The position numbers and the translations under genes were made by a program. The notes beneath the pieces were generated by a model that ran no database searches, had not been told where the DNA came from, and saw only the letters and a list, made by a program, of their open reading frames with translations. 64,000 nt of DNA from Sphyrna mokarran. Its lineage: Eukaryota. Numbering within the stretch: the first letter of the stretch is position 1; every line of letters begins with the position of its first letter. The stretch lies in assembly GCA_024679065.1 (NCBI GenBank), contig JAGIQG010000006.1, positions 41,850,001 to 41,914,000 of the forward strand. Direction: 5' to 3'. This document shows positions 4,029-53,588 of the stretch, piece after piece.

Positions 4029-5620
4029 TGTATGATCACTAGGACTACTATTTTGAAATGGGATTGATTTCAGTTTTCAATGAACAGGATGAGTTGGTTA
4101 ATTGGACTTTTGTGTAATTAGAGCACTACATACATCGCCATCTTAAAGGCATCATAGCCTTCCCCACCTCTGTTTTTGAACCTTGCCTTTGCCTGCCTGT
4201 TTATCATCAAATGTAGAGGTTGCCTGCAAACCTTTAATGGGCCAATATTATGCAAAGGTTCTCCTGCATTTTGCAGGAGAATCTCAAGCTTTGCAAGGTA
4301 TCCAAATCATTGCTAGGGGCCCAGTGATTAGCTCAATAATCCTCCTTCTTGTTCCATATGTTTTCCCTCCTTCTTTAAGGTCCCGTGGTAGATCTGCTGC
4401 TGTTGCAGCTGTAAGTTTGTTCTTGATGGTGATGTCTTGCCAGATAATCACCATATAAATACCAACCCAGAAACATGTATTGGGCCTGGAGTGATACAGA
4501 GAGGTCTACAGAAATCTCAGTTCAATGCCTTATCTAAAAGGTGCCCCTGCAACTGTTCAACAATGCTGAACTCCTAGAGTACTACATTGACATGAAGCCC
4601 TGAATTCAAATGGGAAGAAAGCGATTAACTGAATCAAATTAACAATCAAGAGACAGTCACCTGTTTGATATTGACTTTTCAATGTAATTGGATGTTTGCA
4701 GCATAAAATGGAATGGATCCTGACTTTTTCTGATGATGTAAAATGAGAGATTGCAAATTGCTGGTCTGTTCTATATGATTCCTGCTTTTTATGTTGACTT
4801 ATTATTACTTCTGTTGAGCAAAGACAAAATCTAACTCAAGGATTAGAGCTCATGAAGAATACTTAGATTGGTAAATAATAGGTTGCAGAGCAATTTATTT
4901 GGAGGTGACATGTTAATTCGAAAGAGCCATCATGTTGGTTTACAAAAAAATCTTTTAGATATGATAGTGTGCCTTAATTTATTGACCAGCAGCCATCGTA
5001 TGTTGCAAACATGGACACACACAATGACATGACTAGTGTGAATGCATTGAGCTAGTAGCTTTGTTAATGGACTTTATATTGATCTTTAATCCAGAGAGCA
5101 GTATCAGATTCACATCCATATGGAATTCATAAAAACTGCCAAAGCTTTTAAAATCAAACTTGCAGCAATTGTTTACTCTGATCAAAACAAAGTGTAAGCA
5201 ATTTCAGAGTTTATAATATGCTTATTGGACAGTACAAATGTACAAAATAATCATTTCGCTGTCTTGGCAAATAGTTAGTTTCTGAGCAGTGGTCAGTCTG
5301 AACTCATTAATTTTACTGACTCAATGCTGCTGTCCATTTCTTCAGGAACCTTCCAATCCCAGCTTCCACAGAAATACTTACAGCACCATTCCTGAAGGAA
5401 TTTCATGCGAACAGAATAAAATTAGTAGAAGATTAGGCACACCCCCTTTTTTATGGCACTAGCTACTGTGGTTAGTTTCAAGGTCCAGTCTTCAAAAGTT
5501 AGTGAATATGTGTGCGAGTGGGTAAATGAGTCAGAGGGTGGATGGTGGGTAAGTAGAGGTGGATAGATGGGTACGTTGATAAATGGGTGACTGGGTAGTC
5601 ATGTCAGTAGATAATGATAA

Positions 5621-6995
5621 AAAACATAGAAAATAGGTGCAGACATAGATCATTCAGTCCTTCGAGCCTGCACCACCATTCAATATGATCATGGTTGATC
5701 ATGCACTTTCAGTATCTCACTCCCACTTTCTCTCCATGCCCCCTGATCCCTTAGTCACAAGAGCTATGTCCAGCTCCCTCTTGAACATATGTAATGAACA
5801 GGACAGAATAGCTTTCTGTGGTAGAGAATTCCACAGGTTCACAACTCTCTGAGTGAAGAAGTTCTTTCTCACCTCAGTCCCGAATGGCTTATCCTTTATT
5901 CTTAGACTGTGAATCCTAGTTCTGAACTTTCCCAACATCATGAACATTCTTCCCACATCTAATCTGGATAGTCCCATCAGGATTTTATATGTTTTTAATA
6001 GATCCCCTCTCATTCTTCTAAATTCCATTGAGTACAACCACAGTCAATCAAGTCTTTCTTCATAAGTCAGTCCCGCCATTCCGGGAATCAGTCTGGTGAA
6101 CCTTTGCTGGACTCCCAAAAAAGCAAGAATGCCCTTCCTCTTGCTGGGAGAACAAAACTGCACACAATACTCAATGTGAGGCCTAAGCAAATCCCTGTAA
6201 AACTGCAGTAAGCATCCTTACTTCTCTACTCAAATCCTCATACTTGCATACCAGCGACTGTTCCATTCTGACACCTAGGTCATGTTGCCCTTCCCCTTTT
6301 CCTAAACTGCCACCATTCGAATAATAACTTTTTTCCTGTTTTTGCCACCAATGTGGATAACCCCACATTTATCCACATTATATTGCATTTGCCAAGTATT
6401 TGCCCACTCAGCAAGCCTATCCGAGTCACCCTGCAGCCTCTTAGCATCTCCTCACATCACACACTGCCATCCAGTTTAGTGATGTCTGCAAATTTGCAGA
6501 TATTGCATTCAATTCCTTTGTCCAAATCATTAATATATATCATGAACAGCTGGATTGCAACACTGAACCTTACGATACTCCACTTGACACTGCCTGCCAC
6601 TCTGAAAAGGACTTGTTTATTCCCAATTCTCTGCTTGCTGTCTGCCAACGAGTTCTCTATCCACATCAATATATAACCTCCAATACCATGAGTTTTAATT
6701 TTGCTCAATAATCTCTTGTGTGGAATCTTGTCGAAAGATTTTTGAAAGTCCATGTACACAACATTCACTGGTTCACCCTTGTCCACTCGATTGGTCACAT
6801 CCATAAAAAATTCCAGAAGATTTGTCAAGCACTATTCCCTTTTAGAGAATCCAAGCTGACTTGGACTGATCCTATCATCTATTTCCAAAGACTCAGGTAT
6901 CACATCTTTCATAATTAACTCCAGCATTATCCCCAACACCAATGTCAGGCTAACTGGTCTATAATTCCCCATTTTTTTTCTCCCTTTGTTTTAAC
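5621..6995 (-). mobile_element. CR1/HER1 LINE, 5'-truncated, RT domain to 3' tail (frameshifted)
   Basis: Minus ORFs give TNLLEFF, YMDFQKSFDKIPH, CKFADITKL, RRMRGDL, FFTQRVVNLWNSLP; tail aaacatagaaaatagg. Confidence 0.95.
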
Positions 6996-6999
6996 TATC

Positions 7000-9852
7000 A
7001 GAGAGCTGTCTTCAGTGGGGCAAGAATGGAACTGGGCTGGCTAGACTAGAACCAAAACTTGATGAGGAAAAACTGGAGCTAAATGATAGACTTCTCTCAA
7101 AGAAGAAATTATTTGGGCATAGTCAAGGTATATTCCCTCAAAAGAAAAGGTAAGACAAACAAATCCAGAGCTCACTGGATGATAAGGGGATAAAAATTAA
7201 GATAAAGAAGAAAAAGTGTGCTTATGCCAAATGTCAGGTAGAAACTATAACTGAGAACAAAGCTGAATGCAAAAGATTCAGAGGAGAAGCGAAGAAGATA
7301 ATGAAAAAGGTGGGCAGACAAAACAAAAGGGAATTCCAAAGTCTTGTATCAGCGTATAAAACATAAAAGCGTGGTAAAAGCAGAAGTAGGGCCGACTAAG
7401 GACTAAAAAGCAATTTACACGTGAGGCAAGGGATATGGTTGAGGTGTTAAGTGAACACTGTTCATCTGCTTGTACCAAGGAAACAGATAATATCCAAGCC
7501 ATGGTGACAGAGTACAAACTCTGTCACAAGAAGGGTTCAGAATTGATAAAGATCAGGTATTGGAAAAACTGTTGGTACTTAAAATGGATAAGGCACTGGG
7601 ACCGGATGCAATGCAGCCAAAGATATTGATGAAAATGAGAGTGAAAATTGCATGGTCATTGACCATAATCATCTTCTCTAGACTCGTGGAATGTGCTGGA
7701 GAACTGGAGAATTTCACTATGCTCTTGTTCAAAAAAGATTGTAAAGATAAGCCCAGCAATTACAGATCAATCGGTTTAATTTAGGTGGTGGAGAAACTTC
7801 TAGTAACAATTATTCAGGATAGAATTGGTAATCACATGGAAAATTGTGGACAGATTAGGGAATTAGAAAGAGCCAGCATGGATTTCTTAAGGGAAGATTG
7901 TGTTTAACTAACTCGTTGGAGTTTTTTGAGGAGGTGACAGAAAGGTGTAATGAAGGCAGTGCTGTTGATATGATGTACATTGACTTCAAGAAGACGTTTG
8001 AAACAATGCCACACAACAGTGTTGTGAGAAAAGTTATATCCAATGGTATAAAAGGGACAGTAGCAATGTGGATACAAAATTGGCTGAGTAATAAGAAACA
8101 GCGAGTAATGATTAATCGATAGTTTTGGGCTAGAGGAAGGTTTGTAGTAGAGTTCCCCAAGTGTCAGTATTGGGACTTTGCTTTTCCTGATATATATTAA
8201 TGATCTAGATCTTTGTGAATGATACAAAACTTGGAAATATTGTAAACTGTGAGGAGGACAGTATAAGTTGGTGGAGTGAACAGATAGATGGCATGAAGTT
8301 CAATGCAGAGAAACATGAGGTGATTTGGTTTGGTAGGAAAAACTTGGAGAGACAACATTTAATAAGAAAAACTGTAAAGTGTGTGGAGGAGAAGAGAGAC
8401 CTGGTGGATATGTACATAGATTGCTAAAGATAGCATGATTGGTGGAGAGAGCAGTTCATAAAGCTTAAAGCTTGCTTTATTAATAATGATGTAGCGTACA
8501 AAGGCAAGAAGGTTATGTTGAACTTATTCAGAGCACCAGGATAGAACGAGGGGTCACGGGCTTAGGGCGAGGGGGGCTATGTATAAGACGAATATTAGAG
8601 GGCAGTTTTTCACACAGAGGGTAGTGGGGGTGTGGAATGCACTGCCGAGTAAGGTGGTGGGAGCAGGCACGCTAGGGTTGTTTAAGGGTCTCTTGGACAG
8701 CCACATGAGCGGTCTGCGGATAGAGGGATATAGTAGGACTGTCTAAATATCGGGAGCTTTGGGACGACCAAATAGTATTAGAATATCTTTTAGTTTTGTC
8801 TCAGGGATGTCTATCCCTGAGTTTTTCTCATGTTTACTGTCTTATTTGTTTCCACAGGCAATTCGGTCCACCTTGACCAACAAGGTGCATGCACTCGGCA
8901 GGTCGTGCGAGGGCTGCTCTTGGATGTTGCTTCAGGAGTGGCCTAGTGCTTCACGTCGTTAGTGTATGCTTAAACTGGACCATCTGATGGGCAACATGAC
9001 AGCTCAGAGACTATCGCTGTTGCTGTGCAGACACATGGATTTGGGCCTGTGTCTGCGGGAATTTGCGCGTTCTCCCCGTGGTTGCGTGGGTTTTCTTCGG
9101 GTGCTCCGGTTTCCTCCCACATCCCAAAAATGTGCTCTTAGGCTGATTGGGTAACAAATTGTCCCTATATTGGTCCCTATATGGGAATCTTCCACAATAG
9201 GCATAGCCTAAGGTCATGGTTATGTCATAAAGACGTTAAGACGGCGGCGCGGGCTCATTGGGCCGAAGGACCTGTTTCCCGTGCTGTGTTGTTCTTTGTT
9301 CTTTGTTCTTTGTTCTAGCACCAGTTAGATCTCAGCTAGAGTATTGTGTTTTGGGTATCATACTATAGGAAGAATGTGAACACATTGAAGAGAGTGCAGA
9401 GAAAGTTTACAAGAATGCAGGGACGAGAAACTTTAGTTGTGAAGATAGATTGGAACGATTGGGATAGTTTTCTATGGAGAGAAAAATGATAAGAGGAGAT
9501 TTGACAGAGATGATCAAAATCATGACAGTTCTGGACAGAGCAGATAGGGAGAATTTATTCCCGCTCATAAAATGATCAAGAACAAGTGGGAAAAGATTTA
9601 AAGTGATTTAAAAAGAAGCAAATGTGGTTTAAAAAGAAAATTCACTTAGTGAATGGTTCAGTTCTAGAATCAGTGCCTGGAAGTGTAATGGATTCAAGGC
9701 GACATTAGATTATTTGAAAAGAACCAATGTGCAGGGGTATGGGGAAAAGACAGGGGAATGGCACTCAGTCATAATGTTATTCAAAAAGCCCATGCAGACA
9801 TGACTTGCCAAATGACTTCCTTCTGAATTGCAATGTTTCTGTGACTCTGTGA
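7000..9852 (+). mobile_element. Degenerate CR1 LINE ORF2 (linker-RT-3' end), interrupted at 8540-9316
   Basis: KALGPD, NYRSIGL, CLTNSLEFFEEV, IDFKKTF, KFNAEK motifs; resumes after nested insertion; tail ttctgtgactctgtga. Confidence 0.92.
8540..9316 (+). mobile_element. Young CR1 LINE 3' end with long 3' UTR containing a V-SINE-derived segment
   Basis: Open frame 8543-8746 RTRGHGLR...FFTQRVVGVWNALP...*; (TTCTTTG)n tail; 8 bp TSD AGCACCAG at 8532-8539 and 9317-9324. Confidence 0.92.
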
Positions 9853-10092
9853 ATTGAATCTGGAAAGAAATGAGTTTTGCAGTTGCAATGCCATCTTCAC
9901 TTGTGGGTTTGGGAGGGAGGAAGTGTTTCCTTCTGTTCTATTCTAGTGCAGGAATATTCACACGCTGACAGAATGCCCAATTATCTTGCTTGGGTGGCTT
10001 AATAGTATGTTGCATCATAGTGAATTGTCTAAAATATATTTGCTGCAGTGATAAAGTTATGAGATCTGGCGATGTCTACACATTGCTTTCAC

Positions 10093-10414
10093 AGAATCAT
10101 AGAATCCCTACAATGCAGAAAGAGGCCATTTGGCCCATCAAGTCTGCACCGGCCACATTACCACCCAGGCCCTATTCTCGTAATCCCACATATTTATCCT
10201 ATTAATCTCCAAGACACTAAGGAACAATTTAACATGACCAATCAATCTAAATTGCACATCTTTGGACTTGGGAGGAAACTGGAGCACTCAGAAGAAACCC
10301 ATGTAGACACAGGGAGAATGTGCAGACTCCATACAGATAGTGACCTGAGGGCAAAATTGAACTCAGCACCCTAGCACTGTGAGACAGCATTGCTAATCAC
10401 TGTGCTACAGTGCC
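10093..10414 (-). mobile_element. HE1 V-SINE
   Basis: Tail agaatcatagaatccc, V-domain gggaggaaactggagcac, head cagcattgctaatcactgtgc. Confidence 0.92.
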
Positions 10415-10649
10415 CTCTCTGTTCAGTTACTGCACTCCGTGCTCAGCTTTGCAACGGACTATTGGACCATCAATGCTGAACCCTGATGAAAAGCTGAACT
10501 CCCACCCTTGTAAGAGAAATTAATCTTCAATTAAAATCATGTGTGAGTTCAATATCCACAACAATTTATGGTTTTATGTTGCATTGTATCCTCTTAATTA
10601 ACACTGCTGTTCTGCAAATTGTCAACACACCTTCCAAAGTTCTGTAAAT

Positions 10650-11140
10650 AAGACTGAAATGTAATAACGTAATGTTCAACACTCCCAAAAATATATGAGC
10701 TGACTAGACACAGGAGAACAAGAAAGCAAAATAGAGAGGAAAGTGTGTCAGATGTTTGAGAAAACAGCTGAAAAATGAGTATTAATGGTGGAATAAATTT
10801 GAAAGATTTGACATAAATAAGTTAGTATCAGAAAATCAAAAGTTGCAGTATATAGGGGATATTGGGCTATTGCTTCAGTATGGTGGACAGAGGTTATGTA
10901 GGTCCCAACAGGATGGATTTGAAGGCTATGCCTTTTGGATGAGTTGTAGTTAGTGGAGGCTGGAGACCAAGATGTGATTGTTGGAGAAATTGGACATCAA
11001 GATATAACATTATAACCATGGGAAGAGATAGAGATGGAAATGACAATGTTATGGAGATGCAAGAAAGATGTCCTGATGTTGGGTTGAGAGCCGGGCTGAA
11101 ATAAAGTTGTACACCAAGGTTCCAGACTTCTGGACTTAGC
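10650..11140 (-). mobile_element. Highly degenerate L2 LINE 3' region
   Basis: Purine-rich plus strand; gttgggttgagagccgggctgaaataaagttgtacaccaaggttcc resembles the reverse complement of the L2 NLGV region. Confidence 0.4.
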
Positions 11141-11201
11141 TTGAAGTCAGTAAGAGTCTGGCAACACCAATTTTAAATCCAACCGATTTATTTGATAGTA
11201 A

Positions 11202-11242
11202 ATCTGCTAGCTTTTGGCCTTTGTAGCCTTCGTCAGGCAAAT
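11202..11242 (-). ncRNA. Minimal type I hammerhead ribozyme motif (GAAA mutated to AAAA)
   Basis: Minus strand AUUUGC-CUGACGA-AGGCUACAAAGGCC-AAAA-GC-UA-GCAGAU. Confidence 0.6.
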
Positions 11243-11298
11243 GAGATGTTCTGGTCTCCAAAAGCACACATATCAGCTTTTGGAGACCAGAACATCTC

Positions 11299-11339
11299 AT
11301 TTGCCTAACGAAGGCTACAAAGGCCGAAAGCTAGCAAAT
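11299..11339 (+). ncRNA. Minimal type I hammerhead ribozyme motif (core variant CUAACGA)
   Basis: AUUUGC-CUAACGA-A-GGCU-ACAAA-GGCC-GAAA-GC-UA-GCAAAU; perfect 6 bp stem I. Confidence 0.65.
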
Positions 11340-11684
11340 TTACTATCAAATAAATCGGTTGGATTTAAAATTGGTGTTGCCAGACTCTTAATGAGTTTAC
11401 CCCAGTCCAAAGCCGGCATCTCTACATTTAGCCTGAAGTGGCAGCAGCACAGTGCAAATGAAATTAAGCATAATTTAATGGTAGAACATACATTTTACAT
11501 GTTAAAATGGGCTAATCAGTGGCTACTAAATTAAGTTAGGATCCCTACTTCTTGGAACAAATATTAAATTTTGTGTAATGTTGCATCGTCTACCAATTCT
11601 GAAACTTGATCTGTTTGTTTTACTTACAAATAAGGATTTAAATTTAATTCAAGCATTTGACAGTCACTTTGGTATTAAGTGCCT

Positions 11685-11979
11685 CCTTGTCCCCGGTTTG
11701 ATTCCTAACTTGGGTGAATATGTGGAGTTTGCATGTTCTCCCTGTGTTGTGTGGGTTTCCTCAACATACTCCAGCTTCCTTCCACATACCAAAGATGTGT
11801 AGGCTAGATGGATTGGCCACGCCAAATTTCCCCTTATTGTCCAAAGATATGTAGGTTAGGTGGAATAGTAAATACATGGAATAGGGTGGAGGGCCTGGAT
11901 GGAAGATCTTCCAGAGAGTATGCAGATCTGATGAGCTGAATGGCCTCTTCCTGCACTGGAGGGAATCTATGATTCTATG
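11685..11979 (+). mobile_element. HE1 V-SINE (partial head)
   Basis: B-box ggtttgattcc, V-domain gtggagtttgcatgttctccc, HER1-like tail ctatgattctatg. Confidence 0.9.
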
Positions 11980-13377
11980 CTTTTGACTCCTGAATAAGGC
12001 CTTTTAGATGCTCAAATTAATACAATGCAGTTTAGTATACAGAGGATTAAACGCTGAAATAAAAATTGTGTGAATAGAATTTGTGCACTCACTAAATTTT
12101 GAGATCTGATTCAAATTATGGTCATATTTATCTATTTCTATCTAAATGGTTCTTTATGCTATTTAGGGACAAATTTTTTCTTAAGTTAGCCTTTTGCCCA
12201 AATATCTAAAGCCACCGAATCATGTTTTGGACATTCCAGTCATGAAGTTTGCATCTATTTGAGTGTTCAGCTATCTCTGGGAACCATGGAAGTGCAAATT
12301 ACCACCTGCCTCCATTCCTCCCCCCTCCGCATCCCTCTGTGAGAATGGTGGTGTTGGGTTTCAGGGAAGAGACTTCTATAATTGTGTTCCAGTGCCATTT
12401 TGGCTAAGATGTGAAGTCTTTCAGTCATTGCAAAAACAATCTTGTTTTTTTCACCTTTCCTCTGAATTAATAATAAAGCATGACATTACAAGACAAGCTT
12501 TTTAAAAAAAAACATACTTATTATCCCATTTTTATTTCCCTCAGGACATCTCGTGACTGTACAACCTGTGATCCTTTGGGACTCTGAGTTACGGAATAAT
12601 CTGCAGTCCATATTGCCGGCAAGCATTGTTTCCTGACATTAAAGCATTTCAATGATACTCCATCCCATCCCCCAGTCTTCCCTGTACCAAGAAATAATCC
12701 CACAGTAATGAAGGACCCAGCTGAGAAATAGAATAATTGGCTAAGGCAATGGAAGGCAAGTTCAAACATCCAGCTGTCTCGAGGTTTTACTATTATCTTT
12801 CAGTTGGAAAATGGGTACCCTATTGCCTGAACTATTAGGTCACTTGTCGTATTTTGTACGTCGCTAAGCAGGGTTAAGTCAAACGCTGCGCAGGTTCTTA
12901 ACAATGTAATAAATTGTCACTAGCAGCAACCATTAATCCTAGCCTCAAAAACAGGCTGCATTAGTAGGACATTTTTGTTCTTCAAGCCATTAATTTTGCG
13001 CTGTCATAAGTGATTTTTTTGGTGCTTAATTCGGTTAGTTCTGTGCTCTTTGCTCATTGAAAAGTCAGTGGCACAGCCACTCCTCAGTTTTTTTAATACT
13101 TAACATATGGAGGAGTTCCCTGACATCTTTTCCCTCACTAGGTTCTCCAAAGGCAAATAAGAGTGCTGAAAGCCAGTAATTTAATGCATGTTTCTTTTAA
13201 ATACCTCCTGATTTATAACAGGAGAAATAATTTGCTCCATTCTATATTAAAGTAGGTTAATTCAACTATATAAAATTTGATACTTACTTTTAAAGAAGCA
13301 GTAATCAATTTTATTATTTCTTTGTAGAACCTGCTTTGTAATTTATTTTAAATGAATTAAAGTTAAACTTCTAAAAA

Positions 13378-13704
13378 AATCCCATAGCGCAGAAGGAGGT
13401 CATTTGGCCCACTGAGTCTGCACCAACTCTCTGACAGAGTATCTTACCCAGGCCATCTCACTGCCCTATCCCCATAACCCCACACACTTACCATGGCTAA
13501 TCCATCTAACCTACACATCTTGGGACACTAAGGGACAATTTAGCATGTCCAATCCATCTTTGATGTTTGTAGGAGGAAAGCACAGCACCCAGAGGAAACC
13601 CACGCAGATATAGGGAGAATGTGTAAACTCCACACATTTGGAACGTAACCTGGGTCCCAGGTGATTTGAGGAGCAGTGCTAACCATTGTACCAAGGTACA
13701 GCCC
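13378..13704 (-). mobile_element. HE1 V-SINE
   Basis: Reverse of tail, V-domain gaggaaacccacgcaga and head agtgctaaccattgtacc. Confidence 0.9.
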
Positions 13705-13914
13705 ATTAAATTTGCTTTTAAAATAGATAAGTTAGTAAATTCTTTGGAGTAATCATTTCATTGTTGTAAATTCTGAGTGAAGTAACTTGGAGTCCACACG
13801 AAGCAGATCAAACCATGGGAGAAGTACCTTCTGGGTGTCATCACAAGATCCTCCAAATGTAGTGGCAAGGAAAGTAGTCCAAGGCATAATCAATTAAAGC
13901 CAGTGCTATTGAAA

Positions 13915-14320
13915 ATGACATGTTATTTGTCTTCCTGGTACTACTCGAAACTCAGTTGTGGCAGGAGACTCCCAAGATGACAATAAAATGCTTTTGGAAC
14001 ATTCTCAAAACATCCCTGAAAAGGTCAAAAATACCCATCAACGGGTGGGAGTCCCTGACTTCTGACTGATCCAGATGGAGAAGGTTCATTTGGCAAGACA
14101 CCGAACATGTTGAGTAGCTTCATAGGAAACATAGAGTATGAGGTCGAAGTGTTAGAGAGAATGTTCAAACTCCACAACTCATCCACCTGAGCCCTCAAAG
14201 TGCCACTTCCCTACATGCCATAGAGACTGCAGATTGTATTGGAGCTATTAGTCACCTCAGAGCCCATCAAACTACAATGGAGGCAAACCATCCTCTATCC
14301 TGAAAAACTGTCCAAGTAAA
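13915..14320 (+). mobile_element. RTE-clade LINE 3' end (degenerate)
   Basis: Translates to YSKL..GRR, LKTSLK, WESL, WRRFI and a C-terminal C..C...IG.ISHLR.H zinc-finger-like motif. Confidence 0.75.
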
Positions 14321-14456
14321 CAATAAAAAAAACGGTTAGTCATATGTTGTATCAGGAAATCTGAGGCTCCATAAAGCTGGAAGATGATTTTTACACAATA
14401 GCATCTTATCTGGTTCCACTGACCTTTCATACAGGGCTGGTTTATTAATGGTATGA

Positions 14457-14996
14457 TGGCACAGTGGCTAGCATTGCTGTCTCACAGTGCTAGGGACTCA
14501 ACTTTGAATCTTGGCTTGGGTCATTGTCTTCCCATGTCTGCATGAGTTTTTTTTTAAAGAGCAACACAGCACGGGAAACAGGCCCTTCGGCCCAACGAGC
14601 CCGCGCCGCCGTCATAACTATATAGTAGCAATTCCATTATCCTATTCTAAATTTAGGTTATTCTTAATATGGAAGACTCTCACTATAGGGACAATTTGTT
14701 TCTCAATCAGCCTAAGAGCGAATTTTTGGGTTGTGGGAGGAAACCGGAGTGCCCGGAGAAAACCCACGCAACCACGGGGAGAACGCGCAAACTCCCGCAG
14801 ACACCAGCCCAATTTCAAGTTTCCTCCTGGTGTTCCGGTATCCACCCACAGACTGAAAGACGTGCTGATTAGGTGCATTGGCCATGCTAAATTCTCCCTC
14901 AATGTACCCAAACAGATGCTGGAAAGTGGCAACTGGGGGATTTTCATGGTAAGTTCATTGTAGTGTTAATGTAAGCCTACTTGTGACACAAATAGA
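14457..14996 (+). mobile_element. HE1-type V-SINE interrupted by an antisense insertion
   Basis: Head tggcacagtggctagcattgctgtctcacag; V-domain split at about 14548/14818; tail gtaagcctacttgtgac. Confidence 0.9.
14550..14817 (-). mobile_element. 5'-truncated copy of the V-domain-bearing CR1 3' UTR family
   Basis: Reverse complement matches 9040-9170 and 9240-9296; possible TSD AGTTT. Confidence 0.85.
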
Positions 14997-16439
14997 CTTC
15001 CTGTTTTTTGATATCCTGGATGGGAATGGCATAGTTAGTATATAACAGAGTCAATGATTCCAGAAAACTGCTGAAATATTGGGAAATGGAGGTGTGGGTA
15101 GTCAAGCACGGAAGAGTTCCTTTTCATTAAAGTATCAATAGGGATTGATTAGCGGTGACAGTGACTATAGTGAAAAATGTGAGACTTAAAAGCAAAATGT
15201 GCACTTCCATTTCTTTCACATCCAATATCACTGTTTTTAACTGTTCACATTATCTTGTCTTCTGCCTGTGAAAATGATTCATTGCTTATAATCACATGTT
15301 CCAATGAAAAACAAGGCGATCGTCCAACAGGCCAAGGTGATGGATGACTTTACATAATGTCACGTAATGCCATTATCCGATGCATGGGTTTCATTCTGAA
15401 GTATCCACAATACTGTCATGAAATAAAATGTCCTTTAATTCTATGGCCGACTGTAATTTGCTTATGCCAGTAATAATTTTGAACGTAATTTAGAATTTCT
15501 ATAAAATCCCTTTGATTTCCTCATAAGGATAAATTCAGTTAAATGCAGAGGAGAAACAGGTACATGTTTTCAAATACATTTTAAGTGTGCCTTGCAGATA
15601 ATTGAAGACTAATGAAAATGAGACATAACTGATTGGAGTAAAGCACAGGCAATATTATGATATTCCTTGCTGGAATAAAAATATCTTCCAACGATCTTTT
15701 GACTTTTAGCAGTGCAGCCTTGATCAGATTTCTGAAAATGATGTCAAGAGAGTGACATCAACTGTCTGGAAGGAGAGGTTTGGCTTCGAGGTTGAGTGAG
15801 CCAAAACTAGTTTTCAATCAAATAAATACAATAATAAATGAATTGGAGAAGGTCCTTTTAGAATTTACAGCAGAAAACTCAGTCCCAAATAATGGAGAGC
15901 AGTTTCGTTCTTTATATAAGTGCTCTTATGGAATTCAAAAAAGAGAAAGTAATTTATTGGAACCACTGACTGCTTCTCTTTCCACCAGAAAATATTTACA
16001 TGAAGTTCTGACAGTCATTTATCAAAATAATTCGCTGTCATCCAGTAAAAATGATTCTTCATTTATGAGAGGACTTCAGCAGCATAATGACAAATCAACA
16101 TATTTAAAATACAAGGAATATAAATCATGGTATATATATTAAAGAAAGCGAATAATTAGGCCAGAATTTTCCATTTGGGACTAAGTCCTGTGACGGGCTG
16201 GGAGCCTGGAGTATTTCCTGCTGCATAGGCTGGTGAGAATTTGCATTGAATCACACAATGTCAGCCTGATTAATTATGCAGTCAAGAGTTTCTTATGTTT
16301 TTCACGGTTGGGCGGGCTGGATGATGCATCCACCACCATCATATCCAGGTGCCATATTTAAAGGTGCTGAAACATCACCCTTAGCCATCATTCAAAGAGG
16401 GAATAGCCAGCTGTTCTCAGGGACCTGTGCCTCTGAATG

Positions 16440-16922
16440 TCCTTCTCATAGATTGGTTTGGCTCCTGCTCTGAACAAGACTACAAAAAACTACAAAGTGT
16501 TATGAGTGTAGCCCAGTCCGACATGCAAACCAGTCTCCCATCCACTGACATTGTCTATATTGCCCACTACCTCAGCAAAGCAACAATCTTAATCAAGGAC
16601 CCTATGCATTCCAGATACATTGTTTTCCATTTTCTCCTGTCTGGAAAAAGATATAAAAGTCCAAGATCACGTACCAACTGACTCAAGAGCAGCTTCTCCC
16701 TTGCAGATATCAGACTTTTGAATGGACTCACCATATATTAAGCTGATTTTTCACTTCACCCTACATGTAACAGCAACATTATATTCTGCACCCTATCCTT
16801 TCCCTTTTCCCTACGTATCTTATGAACGGTATGTTTTCCCTGGATAGCATGCAAGAAACTACTTTTTGACTGTATACCAGTATGGAACAATAAAAAAATC
16901 AAATCAAATCAAATCAAATCAA
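16440..16922 (+). mobile_element. Rex1/Babar LINE 3' end
   Basis: WFGSCSEQDYKKLQSV...LLSGKRYKS; (AAATC)n tail. Confidence 0.9.
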
Positions 16923-17654
16923 AAAAAGTTAGGCATAGCATCTTCTTGCCAAAGGAGGGAAGGATGAGGCTAAGCTCTTATACAAATTCAGCATGAGAAG
17001 GAAGAATTTAGGGAGTTCACTGCCTATAGTCTCTATCAGAGGACTTCTGTGCAGTGCCACAAATGCATGAATAACATCCTGCATGCTGCCAGGGTGAATC
17101 CTCAACTGCTAACACTTACCTCACTGATTTACAGATGGGACTTGGGCCTTAGTGGCAAGATCACCATTCATGCAGCCCATGCATAATATAACTGCTGAAC
17201 ACGATAAGGTGATGCCTCATAGTCCCACTACAATCCATTTAGTCTGCAGGTGGAGAGACCACTGAGGGTCCCTGACACATACACACAGGAAACTGAGAGA
17301 GGAGATGGACTAAGGGATAGGGGACAAGCATGCACCATTAATAAATGTCTCTGTCAGTCTTATTCCTCTATCTGCATGGGTTCACCATTCTGGATGGTGC
17401 TGCCCCTTGTGGAAAACCTGCATTGCCTCAGTCATATGGCATGCAATTCATTAGGTTACTTGAAAGACTGAAATCTTGAGGAAGACATATATAAGAATCA
17501 AATTTCTCTCAACCCAATCTTCTCTCTTTGTATAGGAACAATTATGGAACCAGAGCAAAGAGAGAGAAAGAGAAGAGAGGAAGAGGCCCATCTATAATCT
17601 AGGATATTCAGAGGTAGAGGTCCTTGTGATCAACTGACTTGAATGGTGGCTAAG

Positions 17655-22265: not shown

Positions 22266-23179
22266 ACATGGAACATAGAACATAGAACATTACAGCGCAG
22301 TACAGGCCCTTTGGCCCTTGATGTTGGGCCGACAAGTGGAACCAATCTAATCACCCTCTAACCTCAACTATTCCAATGTTGTCCATATGCCTATCCATTG
22401 ACCATTTGAATGCCCTTAATGTTGGCGAGTCCACAACTGCTGCAGGCAGGGCATTCCATGCTCTTACTACCCTCTGAGTAAAGAACCTACCTCTGATATC
22501 CATCCTATAACTACCACCCCTTAATTTAAAGCTACATCCCCTCGTGTTAGCCATCACTATCCAAGGAAAAAGACTCTCATTGTCTACTCTATCTAACCCT
22601 CTGATCATCTTGTATGCCTCAATTAGGTCACCTCTTAACCTTCTTCTCTCTAATGAAAATAACCTCAAGTCCTTCAGCCTTTCCTCATAAGACCTTCCCA
22701 CCATACCAGGCAACATCCTGGTAAACCTCCTCTGCACCCTTTCCAATGCCCCTACATCTTTCTTATAATGCGGTGACCAGAACTGTATGCAATACTCCAA
22801 GTGTAGCTGCACCAGAATTTTGCACAGTTGCAACATGACCTCACGGCTCTGAAATTCAATCCCTCTATCAATAAAAGCTGACACACTGTATGCCTCCTTA
22901 ACAACCTTATCAACCTGGGTACCATCTTTCAGAGAGCTAGGCACATGTACACCGAGATCTCTCTGCTCATCGACACAACTAAGAGTCCTTCCATTAGCCC
23001 TATATTCTGTACTCCTGTTACTCTTACCAAAGTGAATCACCTCACACTTTTCCACATTAAACTCCATTTGCCACCTCTTGGCCCAGCTCTGCAGCTTATC
23101 TATGTCCCTCTGCAAACTGTAACATCCATCCTCACTGTCTACAACTCCTCCGACTTTGGTGTCGTCAGCAAACTATCAA
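22266..23179 (-). mobile_element. Young CR1 LINE 3' part (254 aa ORF, truncated at FADD)
   Basis: WQMEFNVEKC, HLEYCIQFWSP, FFTQRVVRAWNALP; (GAACATA)n tail; TSD TAAGGA at 22260-22265 and 23180-23185. Confidence 0.95.
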
Positions 23180-24690: not shown

Positions 24691-24988
24691 CATACTGAAT
24701 TAGTTTTCCTGCACCATTGCTGAGCGAATTATATCCTGGAGAAGCAGGTCTAAATATGGTCTAACTTAAAGAAAACTCTGAAAAACTAAGGTTGAAAAAC
24801 ATTATAATTAGCTGAATGGAAAGAGCAGGTATGCTCTGCAGCAAAATCACGGGCATCGGCTGACCACTATTGAATTCCCTCTTTAACATTGAATGCTGAC
24901 CTTCCAAATCATCCCTATTCCTCCATTATTCCCCTCTCCCAGAGAAGCTACCCTCACCTACCTACAGTCCACTGTCAATGATATTGAA

Positions 24989-25197
24989 CATGTGGAGATA
25001 CCATGATTGGATTGGGTAGGTACAGTATGAAGTGTCACCATACCTGATTAAAGTCCAACAGATTTATTTGATATCACAAACTTTCGGAACGCTTCTCCTT
25101 CATCAGGTGAGTCTCACCTGGTGAAGGAGCAATGGTCCGAAAGCTCGTGATACCAAATAAACCTGTTGGACTTTAATCTGGTGTTGCTAAACTTTTA
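24989..25197. mobile_element. Palindromic Penelope-type insertion with hammerhead motifs
   Basis: Imperfect palindrome centred near 25122; perfect 13 bp TSD CAATGATATTGAA at 24976-24988 and 25198-25210. Confidence 0.85.
25124..25150 (+). ncRNA. Minimal hammerhead motif (plus arm)
   Basis: UCAC-CUGGUGA-AGGAGCAAUGGUCC-GAAA-GC-UC-GUGA; the opposite arm reads UCAC-CUGAUGA-AGGAGAAGCGUUCC-GAAA-GU-UU-GUGA. Confidence 0.6.
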
Positions 25198-27184
25198 CAA
25201 TGATATTGAAGCCTAATATTCAACTTGTCTTCATTGGCAAGCTGCCTGGGACCAATCAATTTCTAAATTAATTGGTTTTAAACAAAGCATTATTTTAATT
25301 ATAACAATGGTATATTTCTTTCTTAATTTTAACACAAAGCAGCTTTTCACATGATATTTTATATTCACATGATATGGAACAAAGAGCCTGCCATCTTTAA
25401 TCTGTAAATTAATTGATGGGTTATACTCGTCTGATTAAAGAAATGTGCACATCAACCGACAAGACTGATCATCTACCTAATAATTAGACCAGGAACTAGT
25501 CATTTGGGAGTCGACAGGATATTATTATCAGCCGTGGCTCCACACATTTTCAATGCAATCTCACGATTTTGAAAGGCGACCTATTCACATTGCATTCATT
25601 ATGTCCGTTAGATATCGCGTTCTTGCAATATTTTACTAAAATTAAGCTTTAGCTTTTTGTTAATAAGTTGAATAAAATATTCTGAGTGACTTTAGCTGTG
25701 TGAGAATAATTTATGTCTTTTGCAATACAACATGACATGCAAAATGAAGAGAGTTGTGAAAGAACTCAGGCTTTTGCAGCTTTGTACATTAAACACAAAT
25801 GGCACTGTGACAGGCACATACCAATTACTATTACCTTTGGGACAATCTCTGAGTTTATTTCAGAATATCCCTTGCTTTAATACATACATTAATTATGATC
25901 GAGGGACTAGGCTTTTAGAGCTATTCATCAGAAATCAATTGAAAAGAAGTTAACTGAGACTTGATCTAGATTTACAAAGAGAATACAGCATTCTGCAGTT
26001 AACATTAAGTACTTGTCACCAGTTTAATTATCTAGTTGCTGTTTGCATCATATTTACCAGACATAAATCCTGAAAATCCAATTAAAACAATAATTAAGTT
26101 GTTGTTAATCTCCATCACGAACTTGAACATCAAGAGCAGACCACAGTATAGCTGCTTTCTGAATCATTATTTTGATCAGAGCTGTCCCGATAATTTTAGA
26201 AGCAGCAACAACCACAAAAAAACAGGAAATACTAGCCACCCAAAACACCATCTGAAAAGCTACTGTGTTCAAAATACAAACAAAATCGGCCATTGTTACC
26301 ATTAGAATACACTCTTCATGTTCATTGGAAAATGCAAGCGTATTCTAACTGACCTCTGCAAATCTGTAATTACTACAGCTTCTCAAATGGCCATGAAGTT
26401 GACAGCAGCTATTAACTTCTTTGCTACCCATTTCTTCCAGGCACTTGTAAAGAATTACATCAGCTTGATTTTCATACAGGAGGCAATAACTGTTTTATTT
26501 AACTTATCATGTCAGTAAATACCCTTCCCTAAAACTGAGCAACAGCAATAAGAGTTTGTTTGGTTATTAAGGATGCGGGTGTTATTTACTCGATAAATGT
26601 ATAAGTATGTGTGTGTGAATGTTATATATCCCAGACTAGAACACGTTTAAATAAATGGAGTACATTATTATTGTATAAATATGAAAATAGCACATGTCAA
26701 TGATATCTACATGTGTGTCTAAATCCCTAGTTCAACACATATCTCATTTATTCTACTTTGATCAATGGCAACCCAAATATTTCAGAGTTGAAAGATTATA
26801 CTGTTGATTGTAGGGTAATGTGCATAGTTGTCAACTTGTCTTTTTCTTCCGAGAAACGAGTTGATTCTATCATAGGCAATATAGTTATTATATGGATTTC
26901 AGTACTTGATGGAGCCAAATGCATGATTTAATAGATCAGGAGCTGAAAGATTCACACGTGAGAGAACATTGTTCACATAAGCCAGTAGATTTACTCAGGC
27001 AGACAGCACAATGAATGAGATCAATGCTGAACACCATGTGGGCTATGCAGGTAGTGCCCCCCTGCCCCTGACGAACAAACATAAGTCTTCATGTGCTAAG
27101 GGACATGATGGGAACTCATCTTTCCTTATTGCTTTCTCTATAAAAGCAAATGGAAGATTTGCACTTGTGCAACATATTTACGTT

Positions 27185-52519: not shown

Positions 52520-53588
52520 GTGATTGAGCTAATTGGATTAGGAATTGGCTAGCAGATGGAAGACAGAGGGTGGTAGTTGATGGGAGATATTCATCGTGGA
52601 GTTCGGTTACTAGTGGTGTACCTCAGGGATCTGTTTTGGGGCCCCTGCTGTTTGTAATTTTTATAAATGATCTGGATGAGGGTATTGAAGGATGGATTAG
52701 TAAATTTGCAGATGACACCAAAGTCGGAGGAGTGGTAGATAGTGAAGAGGGGTGTTATAGTTTGCAGAGAGACTTGGACAAGTTGCAGAGCTGGGCCGAG
52801 AGGTGGCAAATGGAGTTTAATGTGGAAAAGTGTGAGGTAATTCACTTTGGCAGGAATAACAAATGTGTAGAGTATAGGGCTAATGGTAGGACTCTTAATA
52901 GTGTTGATGAACAGAGGGATCTTGGTGTATATGTGCATAGATCCCTGAAAGTTGGCAATCAAGTCGATAAGGTTGTTAAGAAGGCATACGGAGTCTTAGC
53001 TTTTATTGGTAGGGGGATTGAATTTCGGAGCCGCAACGTCATGTTGCAACTGTACAAAACTCTAGTGCGGCCGCACTTGGAGTATTGTGTACAGTTCTGG
53101 TCCCCGCATTATAAGAAAGATGTGGAGGCATTGGAGAGGGTACAGAGGAGGTTTACCAGGATGTTGCCTGGTATGGAGGGCAGGTCTTATGAAGAGAGGC
53201 TGAGGGATTTGAGGTTGTTTTCGTTAGAAAGAAGGCGGCTAAGAGGAGACCTTATTGAAACATATAAGATGATTAGAGGTTTAGATAGGGTGGACAGTGA
53301 TAGCCTTTTTCCTAGGATGGAGAAAGCTAGCACGAGGGGACATAGCTTTAAATTAAGGGGTGGTGGTTTAGGACAGATGTCAGAGGTAGGTTCTTTACCC
53401 AGAGGGTGGTAAGAGTATGGAATGCCTTGCCTGCTGCAGTTGTAGATGCGCCAAGTTTGGTGGCGTTTAAGAGGTTAGTAGATAAGTTTATGGATGAAAA
53501 GGGAATGGTTTAGGTTAGAGGGTCACTGCTTGTTCCTAATTTGTCGGCACAACATTGAAGGCCGAAGGGCCTGTTCTGCACTGTAATG
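52520..53588 (+). mobile_element. Young CR1 LINE 3' part (280 aa ORF with RT motifs)
   Basis: GVPQGSVLGP, KFADDTK, RPHLEYC; (TTCTATG)n tail. Confidence 0.97.

Follow-up and report, generated by a model that had tools for sequence, protein, structure and literature searches.

A 280-bp palindrome with two core-mutated hammerhead motifs, read as a head-to-head insertion from a Penelope-like element

PMC3846280 and PMC8557442 already give the layout of an inverted truncated copy of a Penelope-like element (PLE), with a tail of 30-40 bp on one side only and a target-site duplication (TSD). In Schistosoma, dual hammerhead motifs lie on opposite strands, 100-700 bp apart, according to PMC4209133. 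For PAc, a Poseidon element of Anolis carolinensis, PMC11167929 describes a protein, a predicted dimer, that both nicks and extends the two target strands, with RT beginning at two sites that bracket the tail. Searches of the open literature gave no account of twin priming by a PLE.

Here we describe an insert at positions 11148-11427 of a window of 64,000 nucleotides, the window being the whole stretch of DNA analysed. It is a 280-bp palindrome with arms of 115 bp, a TSD of 12 bp and one minimal hammerhead motif on each strand. We read it, with a probability of roughly 0.85, as one head-to-head insertion, 5'-truncated in both halves, of the end repeat (pLTR) that carries the hammerhead in an autonomous PLE. 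Priming likely took place at each of the two nicks of a 12-bp staggered cut, and the insert is now likely inert.

Architecture of the insert and its empty site

The locus is composed as follows, in window coordinates.

11136..11147 (+): left target-site duplication, 12 bp; present as a single copy at the empty site of another organism
11148..11277 (-): tailless pLTR copy in inverted orientation, running from family position 118 to -11; of the two fixed 3' end points, it begins at the inner one
11202..11242 (-): minimal type I hammerhead motif, with G12>A at 11215 (CpG decay)
11266..11277 (no strand): head-to-head joint, found nowhere else in the genome, in which 10 nt of left-arm element sequence are followed by a 2-nt GC overlap
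11276..11427 (+): tailed pLTR copy in direct orientation, covering family positions 1-152; judging by full-length copies, it stops 1 nt short of the ATG of the ORF
11299..11339 (+): minimal type I hammerhead motif, with G5>A at 11307; predicted cut site after 11333
11394..11427 (+): one-sided PLE tail, 34 bp (compare PMC8557442 and PMC11167929)
11428..11439 (+): right target-site duplication, 1 mismatch against the left one

The palindrome described in an earlier note, made from the sequence of this DNA, is confirmed. Over 115 nt, its left arm (11151-11265) is the reverse complement of the right one (11276-11390) except for 3 mismatches, at 11234/11307, 11215/11326 and 11204/11337, and a further 10 nt (11266-11275) separate the two. 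The TSD (TTAGCTTGAAGT at 11136-11147, TTAGCCTGAAGT at 11428-11439) has one mismatch in 12 bp. The loop and the short unpaired tail of that description exist as a 10-nt spacer and an unpaired stretch, but the loop is no separate part: it corresponds to family positions -9..0 in reverse complement, present on the left arm and missing from the right one. Homology of the left arm to the family extends out to 11148, giving a homologous arm of 118 nt and a tail of 34 bp (11394-11427). The two arms are joined with a 2-nt GC overlap. The predicted fold of the insert has a minimum free energy (MFE) of -226.9 kcal/mol (z = -30), a stability equalled in 0 of 100 shuffles. Among the 13 inverted repeats of at least 20 nt with arms at most 700 bp apart in the whole window, this palindrome is the longest.

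An empty site confirms where the insert begins and ends. In a second organism, a contig (run X2) joins 10600-11135 directly to 11428-11729, with one TSD copy and nothing between; its flanks are about 8-9% different from the window. The length of a contig from a third organism (run X8) fits the same empty site. The inverted termini and the genuine TSD proposed earlier are borne out. Both outer junctions occur with 0 differences in run X1, DNA of the organism holding the stretch, which speaks against an assembly error, although X1 may be the source sample and hence non-independent. A genome search for paralogous empty sites with the left flank 10930-11135 returned its own locus only.

Other features of the window were recorded alongside. 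From the look of the neighbouring repeats, the host would be shark-like. A further head-to-head stub, older and from another PLE family, occupies positions 24976-25210, with 82-nt arms at 82%, its tail on the left, hammerhead-like cores and a perfect 13-bp TSD, CAATGATATTGAA. A 36-nt inverted repeat at 2343-2416, 83% complementary and 2 nt apart, is unrelated to the PLE arm. The only stop-free frames of at least 170 aa in the window, 22351-23172 (-) and 52528-53412 (+), resemble what we take to be 3' RT fragments of CR1/L2-type LINEs.

The parent element and its head-to-head insertions

The insert belongs to a large family. A first look through its own genome (2.77 Gb) gave 2,164 candidates for the right arm, and the 40 that were scored are 93-100% identical. 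Exact matches genome-wide number 1,079 for a 30-mer from the arm and 81 for an intact-core 35-mer, while the tail, common to sister subfamilies, has 12,875 at no more than one mismatch. Upstream of the arm, longer copies have 3' sequence of the element and then an ORF. In the insert's own subfamily this ORF matches RVT_1 (E 3.6e-7) and GIY-YIG (E 4.1e-5), both above the Pfam cut-offs, and its protein has 116 scored relatives at 97-100% identity. The Penelope-like origin suggested earlier is upheld. The idea of a self-contained unit is not, each arm being the pLTR of an autonomous PLE with RT and GIY-YIG.

No intact full-length copy with the insert's own pLTR subfamily is present among the loci fetched. 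The pLTRs on copies with an intact ORF are 78-84% alike to the arm and so represent a sister subfamily. One of the six long-ORF loci fetched (L043, sister subfamily) has the order pLTR, ORF of 893 aa, pLTR. Its direct repeats, at 1722-2001 and 4747-5027, bracket the ORF in a partial tandem, and these pLTRs are 78-82% alike to the arm. The ORF matches RVT_1 at 428-559 (E 7.4e-10) and GIY-YIG at 792-832 (E 4e-4), the latter with 21.1 bits, slightly below the cut-off of 22.6. The tail of the family ends one base upstream of the ORF's ATG.

Translations of the PLE ORF contain a DKG motif (IKPADKGG) and two cysteines between GIY and YIG (CCHH), VYLIRCKKGCPEAWYIG; both belong to the PLE definitions in PMC8557442. 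Ahead of GIY-YIG lies a CX4CxxC linker (CHSNLCKTC), which fits the Neptune criterion CX2-5CxxC. That source assigns the linker to Neptune and Nematis and gives it as missing in Penelope/Poseidon. On our reading of this motif, the parent element would be a Neptune.

The sister subfamily includes two large and very young inverted insertions (L045:2558-7698 and L042:1-4430), with arms of 1.8-2.1 kb that are 98.5-99.3% alike and with intact ORFs of ~890 aa; judging by them, the family group appears recently active. At L010:1834-3152, a GC-rich single-exon frame is followed, after ~540 bp, by a palindrome of the family that may lie in the 3' UTR of that frame. From its motifs, we take this frame to resemble a beta-1,3-N-acetylglucosaminyltransferase.

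Two samples of insertions were drawn independently of the hammerhead. Set C comprises 85 insertions among the first 100 of the 1,079 places of the arm 30-mer, after exclusion of 10 second arms of pairs, 4 loci in earlier samples and 1 likely duplicate; set D comprises 90 insertions among the first 100 listed places of the tail. Head-to-head pairs account for 52/85 and 52/90, respectively, and for 24/30 and 21/29 in earlier, hammerhead-biased samples. The combination seen in the insert, one tailed and one tailless arm, recurs in 90 of the 175 sampled insertions. Where both arms of a set C pair reach the 3' end, the combination is found in 48/49, with one arm end at 149-152 and the other at 100-130 (mostly 116-124). 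Likewise, the outer ends of the insert are the fixed ones, 152 and ~118, and its inner ends are of the variable kind.

The 90 palindromes of both sets measure 98-1,372 bp (median 234), with 72 of at most 350 bp and 4 of 260-300 bp; the tail is mostly 28-37 bp, and the spacer is at most 30 nt in 58. A TSD was detected in 66, of 12-14 bp in 48, at a score reached by 0.35% of 1,980 mismatched flank pairs. The start of the hammerhead core is present in both arms of 42 palindromes, in one arm of 29 and in neither arm of 19. The 26-nt junction of the insert (11258-11283) has a single occurrence genome-wide at up to one mismatch. The earlier note had raised an independent family, to be checked for fixed length, loop and tail, and had itself named heterogeneous arm lengths as the sign against it. 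Heterogeneous they are, with a length ladder from 98 to 1,372 bp among the 90 palindromes of a family that has more than 1,000 close copies; the junction was found once, and longer copies extend directly into the RT/GIY-YIG ORF. As for a recent insertion, the arm mismatch of 2.6% against a family median of 5% agrees with it in relative terms only, 15 of 63 palindromes being equally clean.

Stem lengths determined without a reference concentrate at 45-51 and at 90-102 bp, and neither group lies clearly at the cut site. Palindrome centres cluster at family positions ~17-27 (window 11292-11302), just 5' of hammerhead stem I, and 17 of the 90 stems measure 90-102 bp; a transcription start, stalling of the RT or a hot spot of microhomology could account for this cluster. 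With respect to a possible pile-up of truncations at the hammerhead cut site (position 59), the histogram of BLAST-called truncation points peaks at 20-29 and 50-69, both of which flank subfamily-variable sites and may be alignment artefacts.

Hammerhead motifs of the insert and of the family

As the earlier note had it, a minimal type I hammerhead motif with a palindromic stem III is present on each strand, and the mismatches between the arms hit the core once per arm. The plus motif has CUGA>CUAA (G5A, 11307) and the minus motif GAAA>AAAA (G12A, 11215), the latter by CpG decay. G5A and G12A would both be expected to abolish hammerhead cleavage.

The family motif was characterised from 202 motifs, chosen for an intact core in the fetched loci and not fully de-duplicated. 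An extra A follows A9 in 199, the closing pair of stem II is G-C in 162 and G-T in 35, and the AGCT palindrome occurs in 191. The second stem II pair switches by subfamily (G-C 104, A-T 53, G-T 43). The motif has the minimal type I features: a CUGANGA / GAAA / UH core, the extra nucleotide after A9, G10.1-C11.1 and a palindromic stem III. Core positions show no subfamily-level change, only decay, mainly at CpG. All 11 core bases are kept in 55/91 arms, and non-CpG core differences amount to 10/918 against 703/9,080 elsewhere, a figure inflated by subfamily variants. On these two counts, core conservation was rejected as proof of selection on the copies. The hammerheads are passengers of the pLTR, conserved among source lineages and decaying in copies.

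Hammerhead models had been put forward earlier as a check. Rfam shows no hammerhead match in window 6000-17000, where there are only generic hairpin (miRNA) matches, all below the gathering score; against Hammerhead_1, an intact family copy scores 11.1 bits (E 5.6), for a gathering score of 34, which is weak support.

Self-cleavage from either strand, as once proposed for this locus, is unlikely, because each motif lacks a core G and is transcribed after its own complement: on each strand the antisense arm comes first, ahead of the motif. Within the hairpin, the hammerheads are predicted not to fold. Stem II has a probability of at most 1e-18 in the predicted fold, and forcing the hammerhead stems would cost 59-60 kcal/mol. 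A cofold of two intact motifs gives intermolecular AGCU pairing, a weak result, as the MFE structure is not a full dimeric hammerhead. The minimal PLE hammerheads of PMC4209133 and PMC11167929 show weak cleavage, which depends on protein or on a partner of the same sense; the head-to-head motifs of the insert have no same-sense partner available. Run X21, only guessed to be RNA, contains family-wide pieces and leaves the unique flanks uncovered.

Formation of the arms and comparison with known systems

In the mechanism that we propose, the GIY-YIG domain would nick both target strands 12 bp apart. One nick would prime cDNA from the outer RT start, giving the tailed arm; the other would prime from the inner start, ~34 nt upstream, giving the tailless arm. 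Both cDNAs would stop after 130-150 nt, and their two 3' ends would be joined via the GC microhomology, then filled in. The fixed outer ends at 152 and ~118 fit two RT starts like those given for PAc in PMC11167929.

The inner ends of the arms are coupled. Over 82 pairs their Spearman correlation is 0.54, and they lie at most 20 nt apart in 54/82, where 20,000 permutations place a mean of 21 and a maximum of 36 within that distance. The longer arm is the tailless one in 32 pairs and the tailed one in 26, with a tie in 24; in the insert, the tailless arm is longer. Coupled ends, together with a longer arm of either kind, favour priming from both nicks over simple fold-back. This twin-priming step is suggested by genome patterns only, and the inner ends, being BLAST-called, can shift towards subfamily-variable sites.

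Fold-back would have one cDNA (or an antisense template) prime itself and copy itself back into the mirror arm; we hold it to be unlikely, if far from negligible. Such head-to-head junctions are read as self-priming on an antisense template in PMC3846280. Short spacers (at most 30 nt in 58/90) suit this origin, as do several joints that, by inspection, lie at short local inverted repeats. The arms agree at 349/401 subfamily-diagnostic sites (87%, against 46% between insertions), which fold-back predicts likewise but which follows too if one source is active at a time. Central deletions after fold-back could likewise leave either arm the longer. However, fold-back of a tailed strand should place the spacer on the tailed arm, whereas the tailless arm is the longer one in 32/82, the insert included, and a tailless first strand is unable to template a tail. 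In one clear case among the 6 discordant ones checked (L118:1735-1980), the palindrome arms carry different stem II variants, which suggests two template lineages within one insertion; the other cases look like decay or misalignment.

We favour priming from both nicks, which would mostly use a single RNA or source, the ends being joined by microhomology. A more specific version, that one RT dimer primes both target nicks, mostly on the same RNA and with one subunit per internal start site, is tentative, its odds being somewhat short of even. If true, it would explain the one-sided tail, the rule of one tailed and one tailless arm (48/49), the coupled truncations and the 12-14 bp TSD in one step.

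Co-option of the insert to supply long dsRNA or small RNAs is very improbable, as is an assembly artefact. If transcribed, the insert would form a 115-bp near-perfect hairpin, but it is missing at the orthologous site in two other organisms (one by length) and thus not conserved; about half of the sampled copies share its shape, and the X1 contig set has both outer junctions. Least probable of all, and already largely refuted, is a non-coding element with two hammerheads (retrozyme- or MITE-like) that replicates independently and is moved as a unit of 280 nt: short palindromes are abundant (at most 350 bp in 72/90), stem lengths cluster just 5' of the hammerhead (90-102 bp in 17/90) and PLE-derived retrozymes are known in vertebrates (bioRxiv 10.64898/2026.07.22.740005), yet the junction is unique in the genome, the length ladder is continuous with no fixed length or internal joint, the core start is missing from both arms in 19/90 and from one in 29/90, the tandem sense hammerheads typical of retrozymes are absent, and both cores are mutated and sequestered.

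The insert is likely ordinary PLE debris, one rung of a length ladder, inert and no self-spreading ribozyme RNA. One of many stubs, it matters little by itself; the stub population is a base-resolution record of the PLE integration reaction. Coupled arm lengths, with either arm longer, yield a prediction that bears directly on the in vitro system available for PAc, and the coupled-arm statistics are the sole part worth keeping. For annotation, such stubs score as Rfam miRNA precursors, below the gathering score, and mimic double-ribozyme elements.

Compared with Pen2/Pen2a of Adineta vaga, as given in PMC3846280 and in the scheme of the PMC8557442 Fig. 2 legend, the insert has in common a head-to-head inverted 5'-truncated copy, a short TSD, a 30-40 bp tail on one side only and a pLTR that ends at the ORF start. 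Its halves are cut to ~130-150 bp, so that no ORF is left, and the TSD of its family is 12-14 bp instead of the 8-10 bp of the rotifer elements.

With the minimal PLE hammerheads described in PMC4209133, the motifs share the extra nucleotide between 9 and 10.1, G10.1-C11.1, the palindromic 15.2-16.2 and the type I topology. They differ in that both motifs of the insert are core-mutated and that stem II is short, with 3-4 bp against 7-8 in the Schistosoma families.

PAc (PMC11167929) resembles the family in that two fixed 3' end points, spaced by 30-40 nt, bracket the tail close to the pLTR/ORF boundary. In contrast to PAc, the parent ORF of the insert has a CX4CxxC linker of the Neptune/Nematis type, and its tail stops directly ahead of the ATG instead of ~110 nt inside the ORF.

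Finally, the non-LTR retrozymes described in bioRxiv 10.64898/2026.07.22.740005 are likewise non-coding, related to pLTRs and equipped with a type I hammerhead. They are head-to-tail tandems of two or more units in a row, carrying complete sense hammerheads in consecutive units, whereas the insert is a single head-to-head pair with one copy per strand.
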